From contig JBLWVX010000018.1 of NCBI GenBank assembly GCA_048268245.1, forward strand, positions 30,362 to 52,097: 21,736 nt of DNA. The letters run 5' to 3'. Source of the stretch: Arcobacteraceae bacterium. Its GTDB lineage: Bacteria > Campylobacterota > Campylobacteria > Campylobacterales > Arcobacteraceae. Both the position numbers and the translations under genes were made by a program. Numbering within the stretch: the stretch's first letter is position 1; every line of letters starts with the position of its first letter. Below the pieces are notes generated by a model. The model was not told the origin of the DNA. It worked only from the letters and a program-made list of their open reading frames with translations, and ran no database searches. Shown piece by piece: positions 14,871-21,736 of the stretch.

Positions 14871-15995
14871 ATGGAAATAAATGACTTTTTAGATGATTTA
14901 ACACAAAGAGAACAAAGTGAAGTTAAATTAAATCATATAGATACATTTCCCAAACTAGTATCACTTTTACTAAAAAGAGTATCAAAAGAAAATGTTGCAC
15001 CATTAGCAACTTTATTAAAACAGTCTGTTTTACCATCTATTTGTATTGAAATAGATGATGAAATAGAACATCTTTTTATAAAAATAGATGCTAATCCTAG
15101 AATTCTATTCGAAAAAGAAATACAAGAAAAAATTGAAGACTTTATCTTTAAAAGATTTGAAGCTGACAAGAAACTTGTAGTTGAAAAAACTTCTGATATA
15201 TCTCAAGTAATTACTCTTATGGAACAATACTTAAATGATGCTATTTCAAGTAGTGGTAACGGTTCTAAAAATGTACTAACAATCAAAGAAAAGATTGAAG
15301 CCATTGATCTTTCAAAAAATGGTATTGCAGAACTAGGCGACCTTCAAAAACAATTAGTAAGTGCAGCTTCATCTATTGAAAATGAAATGAATACAGTAAG
15401 TACTAAACTTAAAACAGGAAAATCAAAAGTTGAAGAACTTGAAGATAAAGTAAAAACTTTAGAAGAAGAGTTAAAAAAATCTAGAAATGAAAGTATGAAA
15501 GACCACCTAACAGGTCTTCTTACAAGACGAGCTTATGAAGAAGAAGTAAAAAGAATTGATAGCAATTATAAACGCAGTGGAAGTGAATATGCAGTTGTAT
15601 TCTTTGATATAGATCATTTCAAAAAAATCAATGATACTTATGGTCATGACTGTGGAGATGTTATTTTAAAAACATTTGCAAAAATTTTAGAAAAAGCTAC
15701 AAGAGATCATGATATTGTATCAAGATATGGTGGAGAAGAGTTTGTAGCTTTAGTACATTTCAATCTAACGAGAGAACTTCTTCAATACCTAAAAAGAGTA
15801 AAACAAATAGTAACTTCAAATAACTTTGTATATAAAGAACATAAAATCAAAGTTACATTCTCAGCAGGAGTTACTTTTAGAAGTAGCTATTCTTGCTATG
15901 AAAATGCTATACAAAAAGCAGATATGCTACTTTATCAAGCAAAAGAAAATGGTAGAAATCAAATAAAATTAGAAGATGGTAGGACTATAAAGTAG
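14871..15995 (+). CDS. Diguanylate cyclase (coiled coil + GGDEF)
   Basis: DHLTGL, DIDHFKKINDTYGH and RYGGEEF. I-site RxxD (RDHD) lies five residues upstream of GGEEF. Confidence 0.93.
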   Translation: MEINDFLDDLTQREQSEVKLNHIDTFPKLVSLLLKRVSKENVAPLATLLKQSVLPSICIEIDDEIEHLFIKIDANPRILFEKEIQEKIEDFIFKRFEADKKLVVEKTSDISQVITLMEQYLNDAISSSGNGSKNVLTIKEKIEAIDLSKNGIAELGDLQKQLVSAASSIENEMNTVSTKLKTGKSKVEELEDKVKTLEEELKKSRNESMKDHLTGLLTRRAYEEEVKRIDSNYKRSGSEYAVVFFDIDHFKKINDTYGHDCGDVILKTFAKILEKATRDHDIVSRYGGEEFVALVHFNLTRELLQYLKRVKQIVTSNNFVYKEHKIKVTFSAGVTFRSSYSCYENAIQKADMLLYQAKENGRNQIKLEDGRTIK

Positions 15996-16039
15996 TAAAT
16001 ATTATTTTTTATAGTTACTGTAAAAGTGATAAAATAACT

Positions 16040-16069
16040 AAAAGCTTAAGTTTTAGAACTTAAGCTTTT
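16040..16069. terminator. Bidirectional intrinsic terminator
   Basis: Perfect 13-bp inverted repeat AAAAGCTTAAGTT-TTAG-AACTTAAGCTTTT between convergent genes. Confidence 0.88.
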
Positions 16070-16096
16070 GTTTAATAAGTTCTCAACACTTATTTA

Positions 16097-16507
16097 TTAG
16101 TTCATTGAGTAACCAATGTTAGAATGGTTCTTAATTAAATCGTAGTAAGTTTTATCTCTTAAAGTTTTAACTTTATTTCTTAATGTAAATCTTGTCATGT
16201 TTTTACCTTTCCAAGCTACATTGTGAATTGTTTCAATAGGAACAATTTCACCTCTATTTTCTAATAATAAAGAGAATAAAGCCTCTTCTATTCTTGTAAG
16301 TTTAACTTCATCGTTAAAACTATTGAATAGTTTTGAATTAGCTTTATTATAGTAAAAACCATTATCTAATTGAACAATACTATTAATATCTTTATCAATT
16401 AATTTACTTACATATTCATCTAAAGAGACATCTAACTTTTGAATTTTACTTTTTAACTTTTCATTATTTTCATCTGTGACAGAGATGCTGATGTTTAAAT
16501 TTTCCAT
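16097..16507 (-). CDS. OmpR-type winged-helix protein without a receiver domain; N-terminus ribbon-helix-helix-like
   Basis: C-terminal KLTRIEEALFSLLLENRGEIV...W...LRNKVKTLRDK...IGY. N-terminal NISISVTDE...SLDEYVSKLI. RBS AAGGA. Confidence 0.75.
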   Translation of the reverse strand: MENLNISISVTDENNEKLKSKIQKLDVSLDEYVSKLIDKDINSIVQLDNGFYYNKANSKLFNSFNDEVKLTRIEEALFSLLLENRGEIVPIETIHNVAWKGKNMTRFTLRNKVKTLRDKTYYDLIKNHSNIGYSMN

Positions 16508-16883
16508 ACATTATCCTTTATCTTTATTTTTTCTAAAATTATAATAACATTTTTCTGTGTAATAACTATGTATAAAGCATTATATATTAATAAAGAAATA
16601 AATATATGATATTTTTTAAATAATATAAACCTAATTTAGGTCATTTTACTAATTAAACTATGCAAAAAAACATACAATTTCCAAGAAAAATGTTAAAAAA
16701 CTAGCATAAAATAACACAAAAATTTATCATTTAAGTATTTTGTAACTTATTGACACATTTGTAGCATTTTTAGCTATTTTGAAAGAAGTATAGCTATTTT
16801 TGCTATAAAACACACTAAAAAAAACGTGATTTTCCTGTTTTTTTCTTAATTTTATAAAAAAATTGTTCTTTTATTATATATAG

Positions 16884-16927
16884 TAAAAAAAATTACATAT
16901 AGCCATAATTCTATTATATGGCTACAT
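16884..16927 (-). terminator. Probable terminator of the ectoine operon
   Basis: TAGCCATA/TATGGCTA stem (16900-16907/16917-16924) just after the aspartokinase stop, with a T-rich tail on the minus strand. Confidence 0.65.
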
Positions 16928-16934
16928 TTTTTTG

Positions 16935-18302
16935 TTAGTTAGTTAAAAGTTTTGAATATAAAGTTTCTAAAGCAGCATCTGCAACATTTTGAGATACACC
17001 AATATGAAGTGATACTTTTGATGGACTCATATCAAACATATCAAAAGAGATATTATTCTCTTTTAAAGCAGTTATTGCATCAACTATTGCAAAAGTATTT
17101 TGTTTTAAACCAATTCCAACTAAAGTTATCACAGATAAGTTGTAAGCTACATAAATATTTCTAGTTTTAAGTCTTCTCTCAATCTCTCTTCTAAACTTAT
17201 TTATATTACCTTTTAAGTCTTCTTGATCAACTAATATAGCAATATCATCTTTATCCGTAGGATAATGATAACTGTTAATTCCAAACTCTCCAAAGATTTT
17301 AAGTAATTCAGCAGTAAAACCTATTTCATCTGCAAGCATATCTTTTTGAAGATGAATTGAAGCCATATTATCAAGCTTTGCAATACCAACTAAATCTTCC
17401 ATTGGAACTCTTTCATTTAAAATAATTGTTCCTTCATGCTCTGGATTATTTGTATTTCTAATATTAATAGGTATTTTACTTTTTTTACAATTTAGCATTG
17501 CATCAAAGTGAAATACATTAAAACCTTTTGAACTTAAAAGCCTTAACTCTTTAAATGTAAGTCTTGGAATTACATTTGCATCACTAATAACTCTTGGGTC
17601 AACTTCATAAACACCATTTGTATCAGTCCAATTCTCATATATATCTGCATCTAAAGCGTAGGCTAACTCTCCACCTGTCAAGTCAGAACCACCTCTACTC
17701 ATAACAGCAACTTCTTTATCTTTTGTAATTCCATAAAATCCAGGAACTAAATACATTTCATCTTTTTCAAATTTAAACTTTGATGCAATATTACAATGAG
17801 TTTGTTTTTGCACCTTTCCATCTGTATAATCGCTACTTAAAATAAACCCAAACTCTTCTGGAAGCATAAGTTTTACATTTAATCCATTTTTCTTCATATA
17901 TTCAGTAATTATTTTTGCATTATAGTGTTCACCTCTTGATAAAAAGTAAGCCTCTTTTTTTCCATCTTTTAATGTACTACTTGTTAAATCTTCTTCAAGT
18001 TTTTTTAAAACTATTTTTTTATCTATATTCAAATCATCACATAACTTATCAAACTTAGTTAGTATTGCAGTAAAACTCTGCTCTGTAGTAATCTCAATTT
18101 TTTGTTCACAAAAATGTTTACCATTAGTTGCTAAATTTAATAAATGATCTGTGATTTTCTCATTATGATTATCATCTCTTCCTGGTGCTGATACAACTAT
18201 TACTCTTCTGTCTTCATCACTTTTTACAATGTTAAAAACTTTTTTTATCTGGGAGGCATCTTTTACTGAACTACCTCCAAATTTACAAACTTTAATATTC
18301 AT
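16935..18302 (-). CDS. ask: Aspartate kinase associated with the ectoine operon
   Basis: KFGGSS, VVSAPG, SRGE, SRGGSDLTG, ENWTD, VDPR, NTNNP and a C-terminal ACT-like region. Confidence 0.93.
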   Translation of the reverse strand: MNIKVCKFGGSSVKDASQIKKVFNIVKSDEDRRVIVVSAPGRDDNHNEKITDHLLNLATNGKHFCEQKIEITTEQSFTAILTKFDKLCDDLNIDKKIVLKKLEEDLTSSTLKDGKKEAYFLSRGEHYNAKIITEYMKKNGLNVKLMLPEEFGFILSSDYTDGKVQKQTHCNIASKFKFEKDEMYLVPGFYGITKDKEVAVMSRGGSDLTGGELAYALDADIYENWTDTNGVYEVDPRVISDANVIPRLTFKELRLLSSKGFNVFHFDAMLNCKKSKIPINIRNTNNPEHEGTIILNERVPMEDLVGIAKLDNMASIHLQKDMLADEIGFTAELLKIFGEFGINSYHYPTDKDDIAILVDQEDLKGNINKFRREIERRLKTRNIYVAYNLSVITLVGIGLKQNTFAIVDAITALKENNISFDMFDMSPSKVSLHIGVSQNVADAALETLYSKLLTN

Positions 18303-18314
18303 TCTAACGTTTCC

Positions 18315-18509
18315 TTATTTTATGTTCTTTTTTAAATCATATAAAGAGGCGTTTAACTTTTTTACTGCATTTGACATCTCTTCGGCTATTACTGAAAACT
18401 TTTTACCATCTTCACCAGATTCTGACGCTTCAATTCTTGCATTTATTGAAATCAACCTCATTTCATTGCTTACTTTGTCTAGTTCATTTTTATTTAACTT
18501 AGACCACCT
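18315..18509 (-). CDS. Tiny ORF resembling only the chemoreceptor (MCP) signalling hairpin tip; start uncertain
   Basis: Open frame of 64 sense codons: ...SKLNKNELDKVSNEMRLISINARIEASESGEDGKKFSVIAEEMSNAVKKLNASLYDLKKNIK*. It aligns by eye with [27 protein letters not shown]. The only in-frame ATG before the motif is at 18461 (48 aa). Not in the ORF track. Confidence 0.7.
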   Translation of the reverse strand, partial: RWSKLNKNELDKVSNEMRLISINARIEASESGEDGKKFSVIAEEMSNAVKKLNASLYDLKKNIK

Positions 18510-18522
18510 TTACTCTTAAGTT

Positions 18523-19170
18523 TTATGTTACTTGGTAGCCCCTATGTCTTATAGTACTTATAAAGTTATCTTCAAATGTATTTTTAATACCTTTTCTTAT
18601 AATATTTATATTTACTTCTACTACATTTTTTACAACCCACTCAGGGTCATCCCAAATTACATCTAATATCTCATCTTTTGAGATTGATGATCTGTGTCTA
18701 TTTTTTATTAAATACATTAAAATACTAAAAGGCTTACCTTTCATAACTAGTTTATTGTTGTTATGGTCAGTCACAGAGTTTTCTAAAGTATCAATCCAAT
18801 ATTTATTTTTGAACATAAATCTTCTTTGAAAATTTTCTCTATGTATTGATTCAAGTTTTGCTAAAATTAGCTCATTATTAGCAGGTTCTTTTATAATCGA
18901 TAAAGCTCCATACCTTAAAAGATTTTTTTCAAACTTCTTTTCATTCTTATTTGTAAGTATTACTACAGCAGTTAGTCTTGGATTTACATGCTTTAATATT
19001 TGCCTTAGATTATTATATGAGTCACTTTTTATAATAATCAGATTATAATATCTAACCTCACAATGATAAATTGCATCTTCCATATCAGTTGCCCTATCAC
19101 AAATGTAAAGTTCATCATTTTCAAGTTTGTTTATCAAACTTTCATTAATATATAAAGATAGTAATCGCAT
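18523..19170 (-). CDS. Atypical OmpR-family response regulator, HsrA/HP1043/Campylobacter CosR-like paralog
   Basis: KGKPF, SKDEILDVIWDDPEWVVKNVVEVNINIIR and TIRHRGY match the HP1043-type DNA-binding domain. The receiver domain is degenerate. Confidence 0.8.
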   Translation of the reverse strand: MRLLSLYINESLINKLENDELYICDRATDMEDAIYHCEVRYYNLIIIKSDSYNNLRQILKHVNPRLTAVVILTNKNEKKFEKNLLRYGALSIIKEPANNELILAKLESIHRENFQRRFMFKNKYWIDTLENSVTDHNNNKLVMKGKPFSILMYLIKNRHRSSISKDEILDVIWDDPEWVVKNVVEVNINIIRKGIKNTFEDNFISTIRHRGYQVT

Positions 19171-19173
19171 GGC

Positions 19174-19476
19174 TTATAAATAAATCCTTTTTTTATTGTT
19201 TTCATCAAAAATCAAAGTTAAAACTTCCCTATCTAATAAAAGTGACTCAAGAGTTTTTACATCGATAAAAGACTCTTTTTTAAAATAGTCTTTTATTTGT
19301 TTAAAAGCATCATCAATATTAGAATCATCAGAGAACTCTAATATCAATGAATTATCACTTAAAACAACTTTTTGATTTTGAACTCTACACTTTTTAAAAC
19401 TACTAATAAATTTAAAAAAAAGAAGCTTTGATTCTCTTGGTATATTTAAATAGTTTTTTATGTATATAAAGTTCAT
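19174..19476 (-). CDS. Hypothetical protein (100 aa)
   Basis: 3-bp gaps to both neighbours. RBS-like GAGG in the end of ectC. No motif recognised. Confidence 0.7.
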   Translation of the reverse strand: MNFIYIKNYLNIPRESKLLFFKFISSFKKCRVQNQKVVLSDNSLILEFSDDSNIDDAFKQIKDYFKKESFIDVKTLESLLLDREVLTLIFDENNKKRIYL

Positions 19477-19479
19477 GAT

Positions 19480-19875
19480 TTAGTCCTCTAAAGGATATAC
19501 TCCATTTTCATCATGATGTTCTGTTCCTTTAATAGGAGGGTTGAATACACAAATAAGTCTCATATCTTCACTCCCTCCATATAAATTATGATCATCATGA
19601 TTATTAAGAGCATACATCACACCATCATAAATTTCATGAACCTCACCTGTTGCAAGATCTTCAATTTTTCCATTACCAGCTACACAATATACAGCTTCTA
19701 AATGGTTTTGGTAGTGAATATGAGTTTTAGTATTTGCTTTTATAATAGTTTCATGAAAGGAAAATCCCATTCCTTCATCTTTTAAAAGCATTCTTCTACT
19801 AACCCATTGTCCACCATGAGCAAACACTTCTCGCTCACTTCCCATTACATCTTTTTTTATATCTTTTACAATCAT
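19480..19875 (-). CDS. ectC: L-ectoine synthase
   Basis: WVSRRMLL, GMGFSFHET, HYQNHLEAVYC, CVFNPP and HDENGVY. Confidence 0.98.
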   Translation of the reverse strand: MIVKDIKKDVMGSEREVFAHGGQWVSRRMLLKDEGMGFSFHETIIKANTKTHIHYQNHLEAVYCVAGNGKIEDLATGEVHEIYDGVMYALNNHDDHNLYGGSEDMRLICVFNPPIKGTEHHDENGVYPLED

Positions 19876-19876
19876 C

Positions 19877-21157
19877 TTAAAACTCTCCCGATAACTTTTC
19901 TTTTTTCTGTGCCATTAATCTATCTACAGCTTTTTCAAATCTATTTAATCCTTCAACTAAAGTATTTTCATCAATAATTAATGGTGGTAAAAATTTAACA
20001 ATTTGATCTTCACTACCACAAGTTTCTATAATAAGTTTTTCCTCAAATGCCATAGAAGATAAATCACTTGCTATTGAATTGTCACCTTTTATATCAAAAG
20101 CATAAGCTAAACCTCTACCTCTTACAGTAACATCTAATTCATCTTTATGTTTATCTGCAATTTTTTCTAGTTTCTCTTTTATGATTTTTTCTTTATATTT
20201 AACTGCATTTGATAAATCATCATTTTGCCAATACTGCTCAATAGCAACTTTTGCAGCAACAAAAGCTAAGTTATTACCTCTAAATGTTCCTGTATGTTCA
20301 CCCGGTTTCCATTGATCTAAATCAGGTTTTAATAGTACAAGTGCCATAGGTAAACCGCCACCAACAGACTTTGACATAGTTACAATATCAGGATTGATTC
20401 CTGCAAATTCAAATGAAAAGAACTCACCACTTCTACCATTACCAACTTGAATATCATCAATAATTAATAAAATATCATACTCTCTACAAATTGATTCTAG
20501 TTCTTGTAACCACTCTTTAGAGGCAACATTAATACCACCCTCACCTTGAATAGTTTCAACAATGACAGCTGCAGGAATATCTAGACCACTACTACTATCT
20601 TCTAAAAACTTTCTAAAGAAAGTCATAGTATTCATATCTCCAAAATAACCATCAAATGGCATAAATGTAGCATTTGATCTACTAATATAACTCTCATCTC
20701 TATAATCATTGTTTCCTGTTACAGAAGATGAACCTTGAGTTAAACCATGAAAACCATTTGTAAAAGATACGACATTTGATCTACCCTTTACTAGTCTTGC
20801 TAATTTAAGAGCTGTTTCAACTGCATTTGTTCCTGTAGGTCCTGTAAATTGAACCTTATAATCTAAGTTTCTAGGAACTAAAATAGTATCTTGAAAGGTT
20901 TGTAAAAAATCTTTTTTAGCACTTGTTGCCATGTCAAGACCATGAACAACACCATCTTTTTGGATATATTCAATTAAAGCTTTACTAATATGATCATTAT
21001 TATGTCCATAATTTAATGTACCAGCACCAGCAAAAAAATCGATAAATTCTTCACCTTGTTCATTTGTTAAAACCGCACCCTTTGATGTTTCAAAAATGGT
21101 TGGGAAACTTCTTATATAACCTCTTACTTCTGACTCTAAATTTTCAAAAATTCTCAT
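19877..21157 (-). CDS. ectB: Diaminobutyrate-2-oxoglutarate transaminase
   Basis: ESEVRGYIRSFP, DFFAGAGTLNYGHN, GPTGTNAVE, DDIQVG and GEHTGTFRGNN. Confidence 0.98.
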   Translation of the reverse strand: MRIFENLESEVRGYIRSFPTIFETSKGAVLTNEQGEEFIDFFAGAGTLNYGHNNDHISKALIEYIQKDGVVHGLDMATSAKKDFLQTFQDTILVPRNLDYKVQFTGPTGTNAVETALKLARLVKGRSNVVSFTNGFHGLTQGSSSVTGNNDYRDESYISRSNATFMPFDGYFGDMNTMTFFRKFLEDSSSGLDIPAAVIVETIQGEGGINVASKEWLQELESICREYDILLIIDDIQVGNGRSGEFFSFEFAGINPDIVTMSKSVGGGLPMALVLLKPDLDQWKPGEHTGTFRGNNLAFVAAKVAIEQYWQNDDLSNAVKYKEKIIKEKLEKIADKHKDELDVTVRGRGLAYAFDIKGDNSIASDLSSMAFEEKLIIETCGSEDQIVKFLPPLIIDENTLVEGLNRFEKAVDRLMAQKKEKLSGEF

Positions 21158-21195
21158 TGTGTATCTTTCCTTGATTTTATTTGTATTATTTTAAT

Positions 21196-21735
21196 TTATT
21201 TAAAGGGTCCTATTTTATACAGAACCTCTTCTTCATGTTGGTATTCAAAATCATCTGCTGTGAAAAACTCTGCACTTTTCATATTTGTTTTAAAATGCTC
21301 TGCTAATTTTTCAAAAACTCTAATTGAAGCATTATTACTAGGAGATACAGTTGTATGTAAATAATTAATACCTAACTCTTCTCTTTGAATTATTTCCATT
21401 ATAAGTCTTCTAGCAAGATCATTTCCTCTAAAGTTATCATCAACAGCTACCTGCCAGATAAATAGTGTATCTGCTTCATTTGGAATTATATACCCAGAAA
21501 CAAAACCTATAACCTTATCTTCATAAGTAGCAACTGAACATAAATCTTGAAAGTGTGTTGATTGTAAAAGATATAAATATTCAGAGTTTACATCTAATAC
21601 CTTTGTACTTTCTACAAGCTTATGAATTTTTTTTCCATCTTCTTTTTTTTTGTCAAGATTTGGCTGTATCTTTTCAAGTACTTCTGTTGCTGTTACAATA
21701 TCAGGATCTACATTTGCATAAATATAGAAGTTTTT
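21196..21735 (-). CDS. ectA: Diaminobutyrate acetyltransferase; frame open to the window end, native start missing
   Basis: In-frame extension beyond the track's ORF reads KKEDGKKIHKLVESTKVLDVNSEYLYLL...GFVSGY...DTLFIWQVAVDDNFRG...TTVSPSNNAS. EctA similarity ends at about 21651. Confidence 0.93.
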   Translation of the reverse strand, partial: KNFYIYANVDPDIVTATEVLEKIQPNLDKKKEDGKKIHKLVESTKVLDVNSEYLYLLQSTHFQDLCSVATYEDKVIGFVSGYIIPNEADTLFIWQVAVDDNFRGNDLARRLIMEIIQREELGINYLHTTVSPSNNASIRVFEKLAEHFKTNMKSAEFFTADDFEYQHEEEVLYKIGPFK

Positions 21736-21736
21736 T

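Follow-up and report, generated by a model that had tools for sequence, protein, structure and literature searches.

A predicted HP1043-like regulator and two further small accessory genes in the ectoine cluster of an Arcobacteraceae bacterium

A 21,736-bp stretch of DNA from an Arcobacteraceae bacterium (assembly GCA_048268245.1, contig JBLWVX010000018.1, positions 30,362 to 52,097; called the window below, at its full length) carries a set of ectoine biosynthesis (ect) genes with three small open reading frames (ORFs) lodged between the ectoine synthase gene ectC and the aspartate kinase gene ask. These are orf100, encoding 100 residues, RR215, encoding a response-regulator-like protein of 215 residues, and a 48-codon ORF resembling the tip of a methyl-accepting chemotaxis protein (MCP), here called mini-MCP. 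In the reading that we favor, and that we hold to be slightly better than an even bet, they are three independent accessory genes riding in one ectoine transcription unit (ectABC-orf100-RR215-miniMCP'-ask). RR215 would be a regulator that needs no kinase switch and whose regulon is the supply of osmolytes, orf100 a small-molecule-binding regulatory subunit working with the neighboring regulator or with Ask, and the 48-residue ORF a recently 5'-deleted allele of a chemoreceptor-tip helical hairpin, the intact gene being real and selected in a few relatives.

The window holds an ectABC-ask biosynthesis operon, with ectA, ectB, ectC and a cluster-specific aspartate kinase gene on the same strand. 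By ORF calls and Pfam, the minus-strand order is ectA-ectB-ectC-orf100-RR215-miniMCP-ask, all co-oriented, with the following features.

21196 to beyond 21735, minus strand: ectA, L-2,4-diaminobutyrate acetyltransferase (GNAT domain, PF00583, E 2.6e-14)
19877 to 21157, minus strand: ectB, diaminobutyrate aminotransferase (PF00202, E 9.7e-78)
19480 to 19875, minus strand: ectC, ectoine synthase (PF06339, 185.3 bits)
19174 to 19476, minus strand: orf100, ACT-like stand-alone protein of 100 residues according to an AlphaFold2 (AF2) model; adjoins ectC in relatives
18523 to 19170, minus strand: RR215, predicted orphan OmpR/PhoB-type winged-helix regulator of 215 residues with a degenerate receiver (Pfam, structure alignments, tree)
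18315 to 18491, minus strand: mini-MCP remnant, comprising the 48-residue ORF (18315 to 18461) and 10 in-frame homologous codons 5' of its ATG
16935 to 18302, minus strand: ask, aspartate kinase of the ect cluster and last operon gene (AA_kinase, E 2.5e-37, plus ACT_9; aspartate kinase NCBIfam models)
16885 to 16927, minus strand: likely intrinsic terminator, a hairpin of 11 bp with a U8 run behind it (-14.9 kcal/mol, z -4.2)

The 5' end of ectA is lost where the contig stops at the window end, and the ectA promoter lies outside the window. The co-orientation and spacing given in the first-pass annotation were reproduced from the ORF coordinates: 3 bp separate ectC from orf100, 3 bp orf100 from RR215 and 12 bp mini-MCP from ask, and the distance from RR215 to mini-MCP is 13 bp to the stop-bounded frame and 61 bp to the only start codon. 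The same annotation had placed no terminator before the end of ask, and we agree. A consensus terminator scan found zero terminator-like sites within the operon, and a folding calculation placed the U8-trailed hairpin directly after the ask stop codon; the scan had missed this hairpin, in which the loop is 9 nt and the U-run begins 5 nt past the stem. On gene spacing and the terminator-like hairpin only, the simplest reading is a presumed single transcription unit from ectA to ask. ORF calls and Pfam found no histidine kinase gene in the operon, and an Rfam scan of positions 15900 to 21736 returned zero families at E ≤ 0.1.

The distribution of the three genes was surveyed in all 184 genomes of the same family (Arcobacteraceae). 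ectC was present in 75 genomes, RR215-like genes (E ≤ 1e-29) in 51, orf100-like genes in 46 (62 copies) and mini-MCP (E ≤ 1e-8) in 5. Taking as linked an RR215-like gene within 3.5 kb and an orf100 within 1 kb of ectC, we found the former in 41 and the latter in 37 of the 75 ectC genomes, both together in 32, orf100 without RR215 in 5, RR215 without orf100 in 9 and neither in 29. All three stand near ectC in just 5/75 genomes (G000, G004, G152, G165 and G174). The first-pass annotation had proposed a three-gene module co-conserved with the ect genes, and the neighborhood survey did not recover one; because each gene occurs without the others and the trio is confined to those five genomes, the neighborhoods indicate that the three ORFs are separate passengers and not a fixed module. 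A link between the regulator and ect beyond this genome was nevertheless confirmed, as 39 of the 45 genomes with an RR215 orthologue (E ≤ 1e-50) place it within 3.5 kb of ectC. In two of the 45 (G126, G144) ectC lies elsewhere and four show no ectC; in G159 and G163, both without ectC, RR215 and orf100 sit at a contig start and ectC may be cut off. Judged by neighborhood, the ties of RR215 and of orf100 to ect clusters are strong but separate from each other, and both genes are intact, of constant length and conserved over at least 8 genera. Among the fetched loci, the commonest arrangement was ectABC-orf100-RR215-(ectD)-(mini-MCP)-ask. Four genomes of one genus show RR215-ectABC-orf100-(ectD)-ask, where orf100 stays behind ectC, and a further arrangement is ectABC-RR215-ask. 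RR215 is found at three different positions within ect clusters.

RR215 carries a clear winged-helix domain (Trans_reg_C, PF00486, residues 141-213, 49.5 bits against a cut-off of 26.2), and its match to the receiver model (Response_reg, PF00072) of 17.4 bits stays under the 30.2 cut-off. The closest solved structures are 8uvx/8uuz (E 3e-26), which we take to be Campylobacter CosR, the entry title reading only "DNA-binding response regulator", and 2hqr (E 9e-20). As the accessible text of PMC8345958 has it, 2hqr is HP1043, and the description of RR215 as HP1043-like was thereby borne out. In alignments to the solved structures the acceptor position is Lys47 and the beta3-alpha3 loop is 4 residues shorter. 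Across 32 RR215 orthologues (alignment A2) the acceptor column reads K/R/Q/Y/D/E/N/T/F, no conserved acidic pair stands at the N-terminus and the K-P motif varies at its Lys, which marks the N-terminal domain as a putative pseudo-receiver; the invariant or near-invariant set is instead D25, D32, Y35, H36, R40, Y42, N43 and H-R-E-N-F at 110-114. On these alignments RR215 is judged to be without a phospho-acceptor and phosphorylation-blind. Because the receiver fold is kept and the phospho-chemistry lost, the protein most likely functions as a constitutive dimer without kinase switching. The numbering of the DNA-binding domain is in register with HP1043, and RR215 retains the DNA-contact residues I188, N189, R192, T206, R208 and R210, at which mutations weakened or abolished DNA binding by HP1043 (PMC8345958, accessible part). 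Other positions of helix alpha8 and the wing have changed (Q193K, K194G, D196K, K197N and R209H).

All 60 relatives searched gave a match to RR215, and where RR215 orthologues exist the same genome carries, at another place, a second match of about 35% identity. In G001, the closest congener, this second match is a 227-residue CosR-like regulator with a canonical receiver including the Asp, and a histidine kinase gene comes next. A maximum-likelihood tree built from 34 sequences separates the RR215 clade (31 rows) from the G001 CosR-like gene by a 100/99 branch; a 36%-identical regulator that another genus carries divergent from ectABC groups with the CosR side. Given the second CosR-like gene in congeners and the separate clade, RR215 is on the tree a paralogue of CosR/HsrA (HP1043), not an orthologue, and it does not follow the pattern of HP1043/HsrA/CosR, with one copy per genome and conservation across the order. 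As a side observation, the window's own assembly (G000) is without the CosR/HsrA-like regulator of G001, its kinase and the neighboring gene (L089, G001:C1:499500-503500): the best protein match in G000 is 34% identical and the 3-kb DNA query gave only two short chance matches of about 45 bp. The other four congeners have a corresponding match, about 35% identical to RR215. As G000 is a draft in 57 contigs, the absence may be an assembly gap; should it be real, RR215 would be the sole CosR-like protein of this strain.

A functional hint comes from the RR215 copies that lie away from ect. In G144 and G146, RR215 and proV-proW-proX are divergently oriented (ProV 504.6 bits, cut-off 444; ProX 394.6 bits, cut-off 215), and G126 has the same locus without the transporter. 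In G035 an RR215-like gene stands upstream of proB (TIGR01027, 202.7 bits against a cut-off of 186), with a PAS histidine kinase gene on its other side. The copies linked to proVWX and to proB form single clades nested among the ect-linked RR215s, so on the tree these moves are secondary. Since each move reached another osmolyte system, they provide the strongest indirect evidence that RR215 regulates osmolyte supply, and we regard it as probably a transcription regulator of osmolyte genes.

The gene ahead of RR215 is of a different kind. No Pfam or NCBIfam family, and no ACT model of Pfam, matched orf100 above cut-off. A word-indexed search returned 8 clusters, all of 100 residues, the named ones being "hypothetical protein" of Arcobacter sp. 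and Campylobacterota bacterium, and a profile built from 24 orthologues brought up 56 representatives in a set of 1.84 billion proteins, 42 of them at E ≤ 1e-10; they have 57-130 residues and none is fused. The protein family is limited to this bacterial family. The AF2 model is confident (pLDDT 94, pTM 0.85), with a beta-alpha-beta-beta-alpha-beta arrangement over residues 1-76 and a C-terminal beta-sheet of four more strands over residues 77-100. Foldseek found nothing in the PDB at E ≤ 0.001, and an Atlas look-up yielded no usable hit; with an exhaustive structural aligner, the top three matches were ACT domains of aspartate kinases, namely 3l76_B (Z 9.6, rmsd 1.9 over 73 residues) and 6mx1_B and 5yei_D (both Z 8.6), the best of which is only modestly above the background of Z 7-8 stated as usual for this aligner. 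The confident model thus describes orf100 as a small ACT-like protein with a modest fold match. ACT domains bind ligands in the beta1-alpha1 loop, and it is in this loop that N8 and Y9 of orf100 are invariant and L10 near-invariant (24-sequence alignment A1 and model).

Two roles can be considered for such a protein. It may be unrelated to RR215 and serve as a metabolic regulatory subunit of the pathway, for instance by pairing, as an ACT-type partner, with the aspartate kinase of the cluster or with EctC to tune precursor flow. The structural matches to regulatory ACT domains of aspartate kinases agree with this, as does position: orf100 is always behind ectC, even where RR215 is upstream or absent (G024, G181-183), and ask is present in every fetched ect cluster that bears orf100. 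However, many ask-bearing clusters are without orf100, and 25 of the 62 orf100-like copies lie outside ect clusters. We scanned 12 of these non-ect loci, plus a thirteenth, L068, and found an aspartate kinase gene beside none of the 13. Eight of the 12 are beside two-component genes: five copies lie directly downstream of an OmpR-type regulator and HAMP kinase pair, two follow regulator-kinase-SecF and one is divergent from a regulator-kinase pair. The paralogue in L066 follows an ArsR-type gene and faces a hybrid kinase, an ArsR arrangement that L068 repeats, and the remaining three copies are beside a BCCT transporter, a GGDEF-EAL gene and msrA/msrB. Several of these loci are the same orthologous locus in sister species, which leaves about four independent associations. 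Because the paralogues adjoin regulator genes, a regulator-associated role is favored over a purely metabolic one, without the matter being settled: we regard the metabolic subunit as unlikely, and orf100 as a ligand-binding regulatory partner as a tentative assignment, somewhat less probable than its opposite. The paralogue loci comprise L065, L069 and L072-L074 (regulator-kinase-orf100-like-accC), L071 and L075, and L066 and L068; the copy in L068 has no ATG, GTG or TTG start.

The ectA promoter, being absent from the window, was analyzed in the relatives' loci. In 19 of 31 loci, TTAAG-N6-TTAAG (at most one mismatch, coding strand) occurs at -115 to -85 from the ectA ATG, against a mean of 0.15 and a maximum of 2 in composition-matched shuffles and 0-4 in other 30-bp bins of the same 31 upstream sequences. 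The count overstates independence, the loci being related, but across genera the box is preserved and its flanks are not. An extended -10 element follows 7-9 bp past the end of the box, which stands at the place of the -35. The HP1043 motif, as given in the accessible text of PMC5253667, consists of two TTTAAG repeats with a 5-bp spacer (11 bp apart) that replace the -35 on the coding strand, the second repeat being less conserved; by sequence comparison the ectA box equals this published consensus. Within the window itself, TTAAG-N6-TTAAG was found 5 times against 8.25 expected, with none in the operon, and the RR215-proV intergenic regions hold one clear TTAAG half-site only, which we do not count as support. 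Where it is present, RR215 is the natural candidate reader of the box. It would bind this direct repeat in place of the -35 of the ectA promoter and activate the ect operon, and hence also its own gene in positive feedback. Homology, the loss of the acceptor, the retention of most HP1043 DNA-contact residues, the neighborhoods and the promoter box are observed here, and binding, the sign of regulation and the input signal we infer; that RR215 acts through the TTAAG box as an activator we put a little short of an even chance.

Several observations weigh against this view of RR215 and its companions. To begin with, 34 of the 75 ect clusters do without RR215, and the same box, with a weaker second half, precedes ectA in 10/10 RR215-less clusters examined, so a housekeeping CosR orthologue could read it. 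The real target of RR215 may differ from that of HP1043, because positions 193, 194, 196 and 197 of the recognition helix are changed. A conserved MerR-type gene of 113 codons, upstream of ectA in most clusters and missing from this genus, could be the main regulator elsewhere. The PAS kinase gene directly upstream of the RR215-like gene in G035 speaks against kinase independence in that lineage. Finally, the ACT-like fold is common, and the Z of 9.6 for orf100 is modest over background.

An alternative is that RR215 is an EctR-like repressor acting at another element, with the housekeeping CosR orthologue as the reader of the TTAAG box. Between the -10 and the ectA ribosome-binding site, family-wide (ectA 5' untranslated regions of L021-L058 and L063-L087), there are TGTAAA/TTTACA boxes, with a TGTAAA-N3-TTTACA palindrome and further TGTAAA repeats about 21 bp apart. 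Conservation of the palindrome and repeats 3' of the -10 in most loci would suit a repressor, as would the presence of the TTAAG box where RR215 is absent and the fact that the known ect-linked regulator EctR represses (PMC5924519, accessible part). On the other hand, the TGTAAA boxes are present just as well in RR215-less clusters, occurring with or without RR215 and with or without the MerR-type gene; RR215 keeps most DNA-contact residues of HP1043; and HP1043-type sites at -35 are, in the accessible portions of PMC8345958 and PMC5253667, typical of activators. We consider the repressor unlikely and retain activation through the TTAAG box as the preferred mode of action. In the window, TGTAAA-N3-TTTACA gave 2 one-mismatch matches, both outside the operon.

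The third gene presents a different picture. The 48-residue ORF scores 26.9 bits against MCPsignal, below the 34.6 cut-off; intact alleles of the same genus score 23.6-31.1 and the copies of a second genus (genus-g11) 43.9-44.1, above it. The match covers only profile positions 33-96 of 172, and methylation helices, HAMP and the membrane/sensor part are absent from all members of 48-69 residues. A collection of 5.8 billion proteins holds only five mini-MCP clusters, of 48-69 residues, the intact members having 66-69; three species of the second genus (G152, G165, G174) have copies of 68-69 residues. In 5/5 mini-MCP genomes the gene is immediately upstream of ask. The 66-residue form is modeled as a two-helix hairpin (H3-32, H34-65, pLDDT 90.8). 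Values of dN/dS within the second genus are 0.03 (8 synonymous against 1 non-synonymous), 0.10 and 0.14, and that between window and G004 is 0.10 with dS saturated, which puts the intact gene under purifying selection. A recent origin from a resident receptor gene was considered and rejected, as mini-MCP is only 29-36% identical to all resident receptors; it aligns gaplessly to their tips (29-33% identical), which are nearly identical to one another.

In the window the gene is not whole. The frame is open for 64 codons, of which the sole start codon leaves 48, and homology runs 5' of the present ATG. A contig of a related strain (X11, 95-99% alike) has 37 extra bases between 18488 and 18483, with six repeated at the junction; on the minus strand they supply an ATG and the codons for QESVLTVY, the N-terminus of the 66-residue database protein. 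The deletion, with its junction at 18483-18488 and the start codon lost, is shared by two near-identical strains, X1 and X5, and of the N-terminal arm a 48-residue product would retain just 14 residues. The ORF is thus almost certainly a 5'-truncated allele (37-bp deletion) of a tip-hairpin gene of 66-69 residues: the tiny MCP-tip ORF of the first-pass annotation is there, co-oriented and ahead of ask, yet as a gene that has lost its start codon. In G001 only the last ~55 bp are left before ask. The gene is intact in G004 and absent from G002 and G003 (gap ~35 bp) and from G005; on this comparison mini-MCP is being lost in this genus, and in this strain it is probably non-functional. The suggested link to chemotaxis or motility is doubtful in this strain because of the deletion allele here and the stub in the closest congener, and an action of the intact protein on the chemotaxis array we consider rather unlikely.

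A more elaborate scheme can be drawn up. In it, orf100 and RR215 would be a phosphorylation-free sensor-regulator pair; orf100, with an osmolyte or a precursor as its ligand (ectoine, aspartate, diaminobutyrate or K-glutamate), would dock on the pseudo-receiver and so replace a histidine kinase as the input of an OmpR-type regulator, with its paralogues likewise accessory to ordinary two-component and ArsR regulators. Independently of that pair, the intact mini-MCP would be a natural tip-only decoy, co-made with the ectoine enzymes; by insertion into the chemoreceptor array, or by titrating it, the decoy would dampen chemotaxis when salt is high. This scheme seems to us improbable.

Still less probable, in our view, is one dedicated signaling module in which osmotic stress and ectoine synthesis would be coupled with transcription as well as with chemotaxis or motility. 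All three genes are co-oriented and tightly packed in one operon, the same trio recurs in the same order in the second genus (G152, G165, G174), and mini-MCP is never found outside ect clusters (5/5 genomes). Against a module stand the confinement of the trio to five of the 75 ectC genomes with each gene found without the others, the start of mini-MCP lost in this strain and the stub in its closest congener, and the low identity (29-33%) of mini-MCP to the cell's own near-invariant receptor tips.

The region around these genes is fluid. Identity over the cluster is mosaic: ectB of the window (19877-21157) is 99% identical to that of G002 (L023) and 94% to that of G001 (L021), and orf100 and RR215 are 96% identical to those of G001 and 79-80% to those of G002, which suggests recombination within the cluster between species. 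An ectD gene (TIGR02408, 324 bits, just below 336.5) lies between RR215 and ask in G004 (L024, 5706-6587) and G005 (L025, 6993-7874); it is absent from the window, G001, G002 and G003, and G171 and G168 retain only broken pieces (L049, 9092-9322; L050, 9172-9618). The interval between RR215 and ask is, in these comparisons, a hotspot of gain and loss. In a metagenome contig (X9, depth 42), 367 bases from the ask start to the 3' part of RR215 are swapped for 170 others (18303-18671), and further on 690 bases are replaced by 686 others; this contig comes from a remoter relative whose mini-MCP position holds different content. Least probable of all, the extra genes could be neutral hitch-hikers in a recombining cluster, none affecting ectoine synthesis, a view that suits the fluid ectC-ask region (ectD present, absent or fragmented; mini-MCP intact, truncated or a stub) and the mosaic identity (ectB 99% to G002, RR215 80%), but not the intact RR215 and orf100 of constant length in at least 8 genera, the repeated re-linking of RR215 to other osmolyte loci or the purifying selection on intact mini-MCP.

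Other putative regulators were found nearby. Two features lie beyond ask in the window.

16097 to 16507, minus strand: protein of 136 residues with a Trans_reg_C winged helix only (E 1.6e-7), 427 bp downstream of ask
14871 to 15995, plus strand: GGDEF diguanylate cyclase with a long coiled-coil N-terminus, beyond the 136-residue gene and converging on it

The 136-residue gene has its own promoter-like sites and a terminator-like hairpin (16069-16040), and across the genus its product shows 88-98% identity, a stronger conservation than that of RR215 or orf100; a 34%-identical homologue lies upstream of ectA in G033. It may be a further ect-linked regulator in a genus that lacks the MerR-type gene. 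The latter, a MerR-family gene of 112-115 codons (PF13411, above cut-off), stands immediately ahead of ectA in the majority of the family's ect clusters. Its product is 60-98% identical between genera, and the gene is present with or without RR215; it lies upstream of ectA or adjoins proVWX in L026-28, L037-44, L046, L049-52, L055-58, L061, L064, L078-83 and L085-87, the proVWX cases including G144 and G146. The window does not hold it, and it was not found in the loci fetched from the same genus. From its neighborhoods it looks like a widespread, undescribed osmolyte-cluster regulator. That it and RR215 are mutually exclusive was rejected, both being present in 20 RR215-bearing loci. A second GGDEF paralogue is found on the far side of ectA in all five congeners.

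Among described systems, HP1043 (HsrA, Helicobacter pylori) and CosR (Campylobacter jejuni) resemble RR215 most, having like it an OmpR-type winged helix and a degenerate receiver without phospho-acceptor. The candidate target of RR215, a TTAAG direct repeat with 11-bp spacing at -35, adds to the likeness with HP1043 (PMC5253667, accessible text). They differ in that HP1043/CosR are stand-alone global regulators whereas RR215 is a paralogue inside osmolyte clusters, with a 4-residue beta3-alpha3 deletion and changed positions 193, 194, 196 and 197. With the MarR-type EctR (a repressor of ect genes in methylotrophs) and the MarR-type Vibrio CosR, RR215 shares a regulator gene physically linked to ect (PMC5924519, accessible part). 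The folds are unrelated: RR215 has no MarR domain, and no MarR family was among the Pfam matches of RR215, orf100 or the 136-residue protein. Moreover, the EctR gene is upstream of ectA, divergent or separate, whereas RR215 is inside the operon. Mini-MCP keeps the hairpin core and the G-E-x-G-K/R-x-F turn of MCPs (PF00015), and differs in its 66-69 residues with about 4 heptads per arm. The model of orf100 shows the topology of ACT domains over residues 1-76, with aspartate kinase ACT domains as best matches, and the protein differs in being stand-alone, in the extra C-terminal beta-sheet (77-100) and in giving no ACT match in Pfam.

In the accessible part of the main review (PMC5924519), the MarR-type repressor EctR is the only cluster-linked ect regulator named; 97 of 510 producers have it, all of them Alpha-, Beta- or Gammaproteobacteria. 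Epsilonproteobacteria figure there solely as rare carriers of ectC. Two genome papers on Arcobacter go, in their accessible text, no further than ectABC or the pathway (PMC5495459, PMC10336517). The first-pass annotation knew of no HP1043-like regulator plus chemoreceptor fragment in an ect cluster, and our search likewise found no published description of an ect-linked RR215, orf100 or mini-MCP in the accessible main texts of the ectoine, Arcobacter and Epsilonproteobacteria literature. An HP1043-like, phosphorylation-blind, ect-linked regulator thus appears to be undescribed so far.

How ect genes sense salt is still an open question, with EctR the sole cluster-linked regulator in the accessible part of the main review (PMC5924519). 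The Campylobacterota studied here point to a different solution, in which the operon itself includes a predicted regulator of CosR/HP1043 type that has no phosphorylation site and that relatives employ again at proVWX and proB. RR215 would also provide a second natural example, besides HP1043/CosR, for the study of pseudo-receiver control. In addition, two unannotated small families come to light, a regulator-associated ACT-like 100-mer and a receptor-tip mini-protein found only in ect clusters. For this marine, shellfish-associated group, RR215 is a defined and testable candidate for the control of osmolyte genes.

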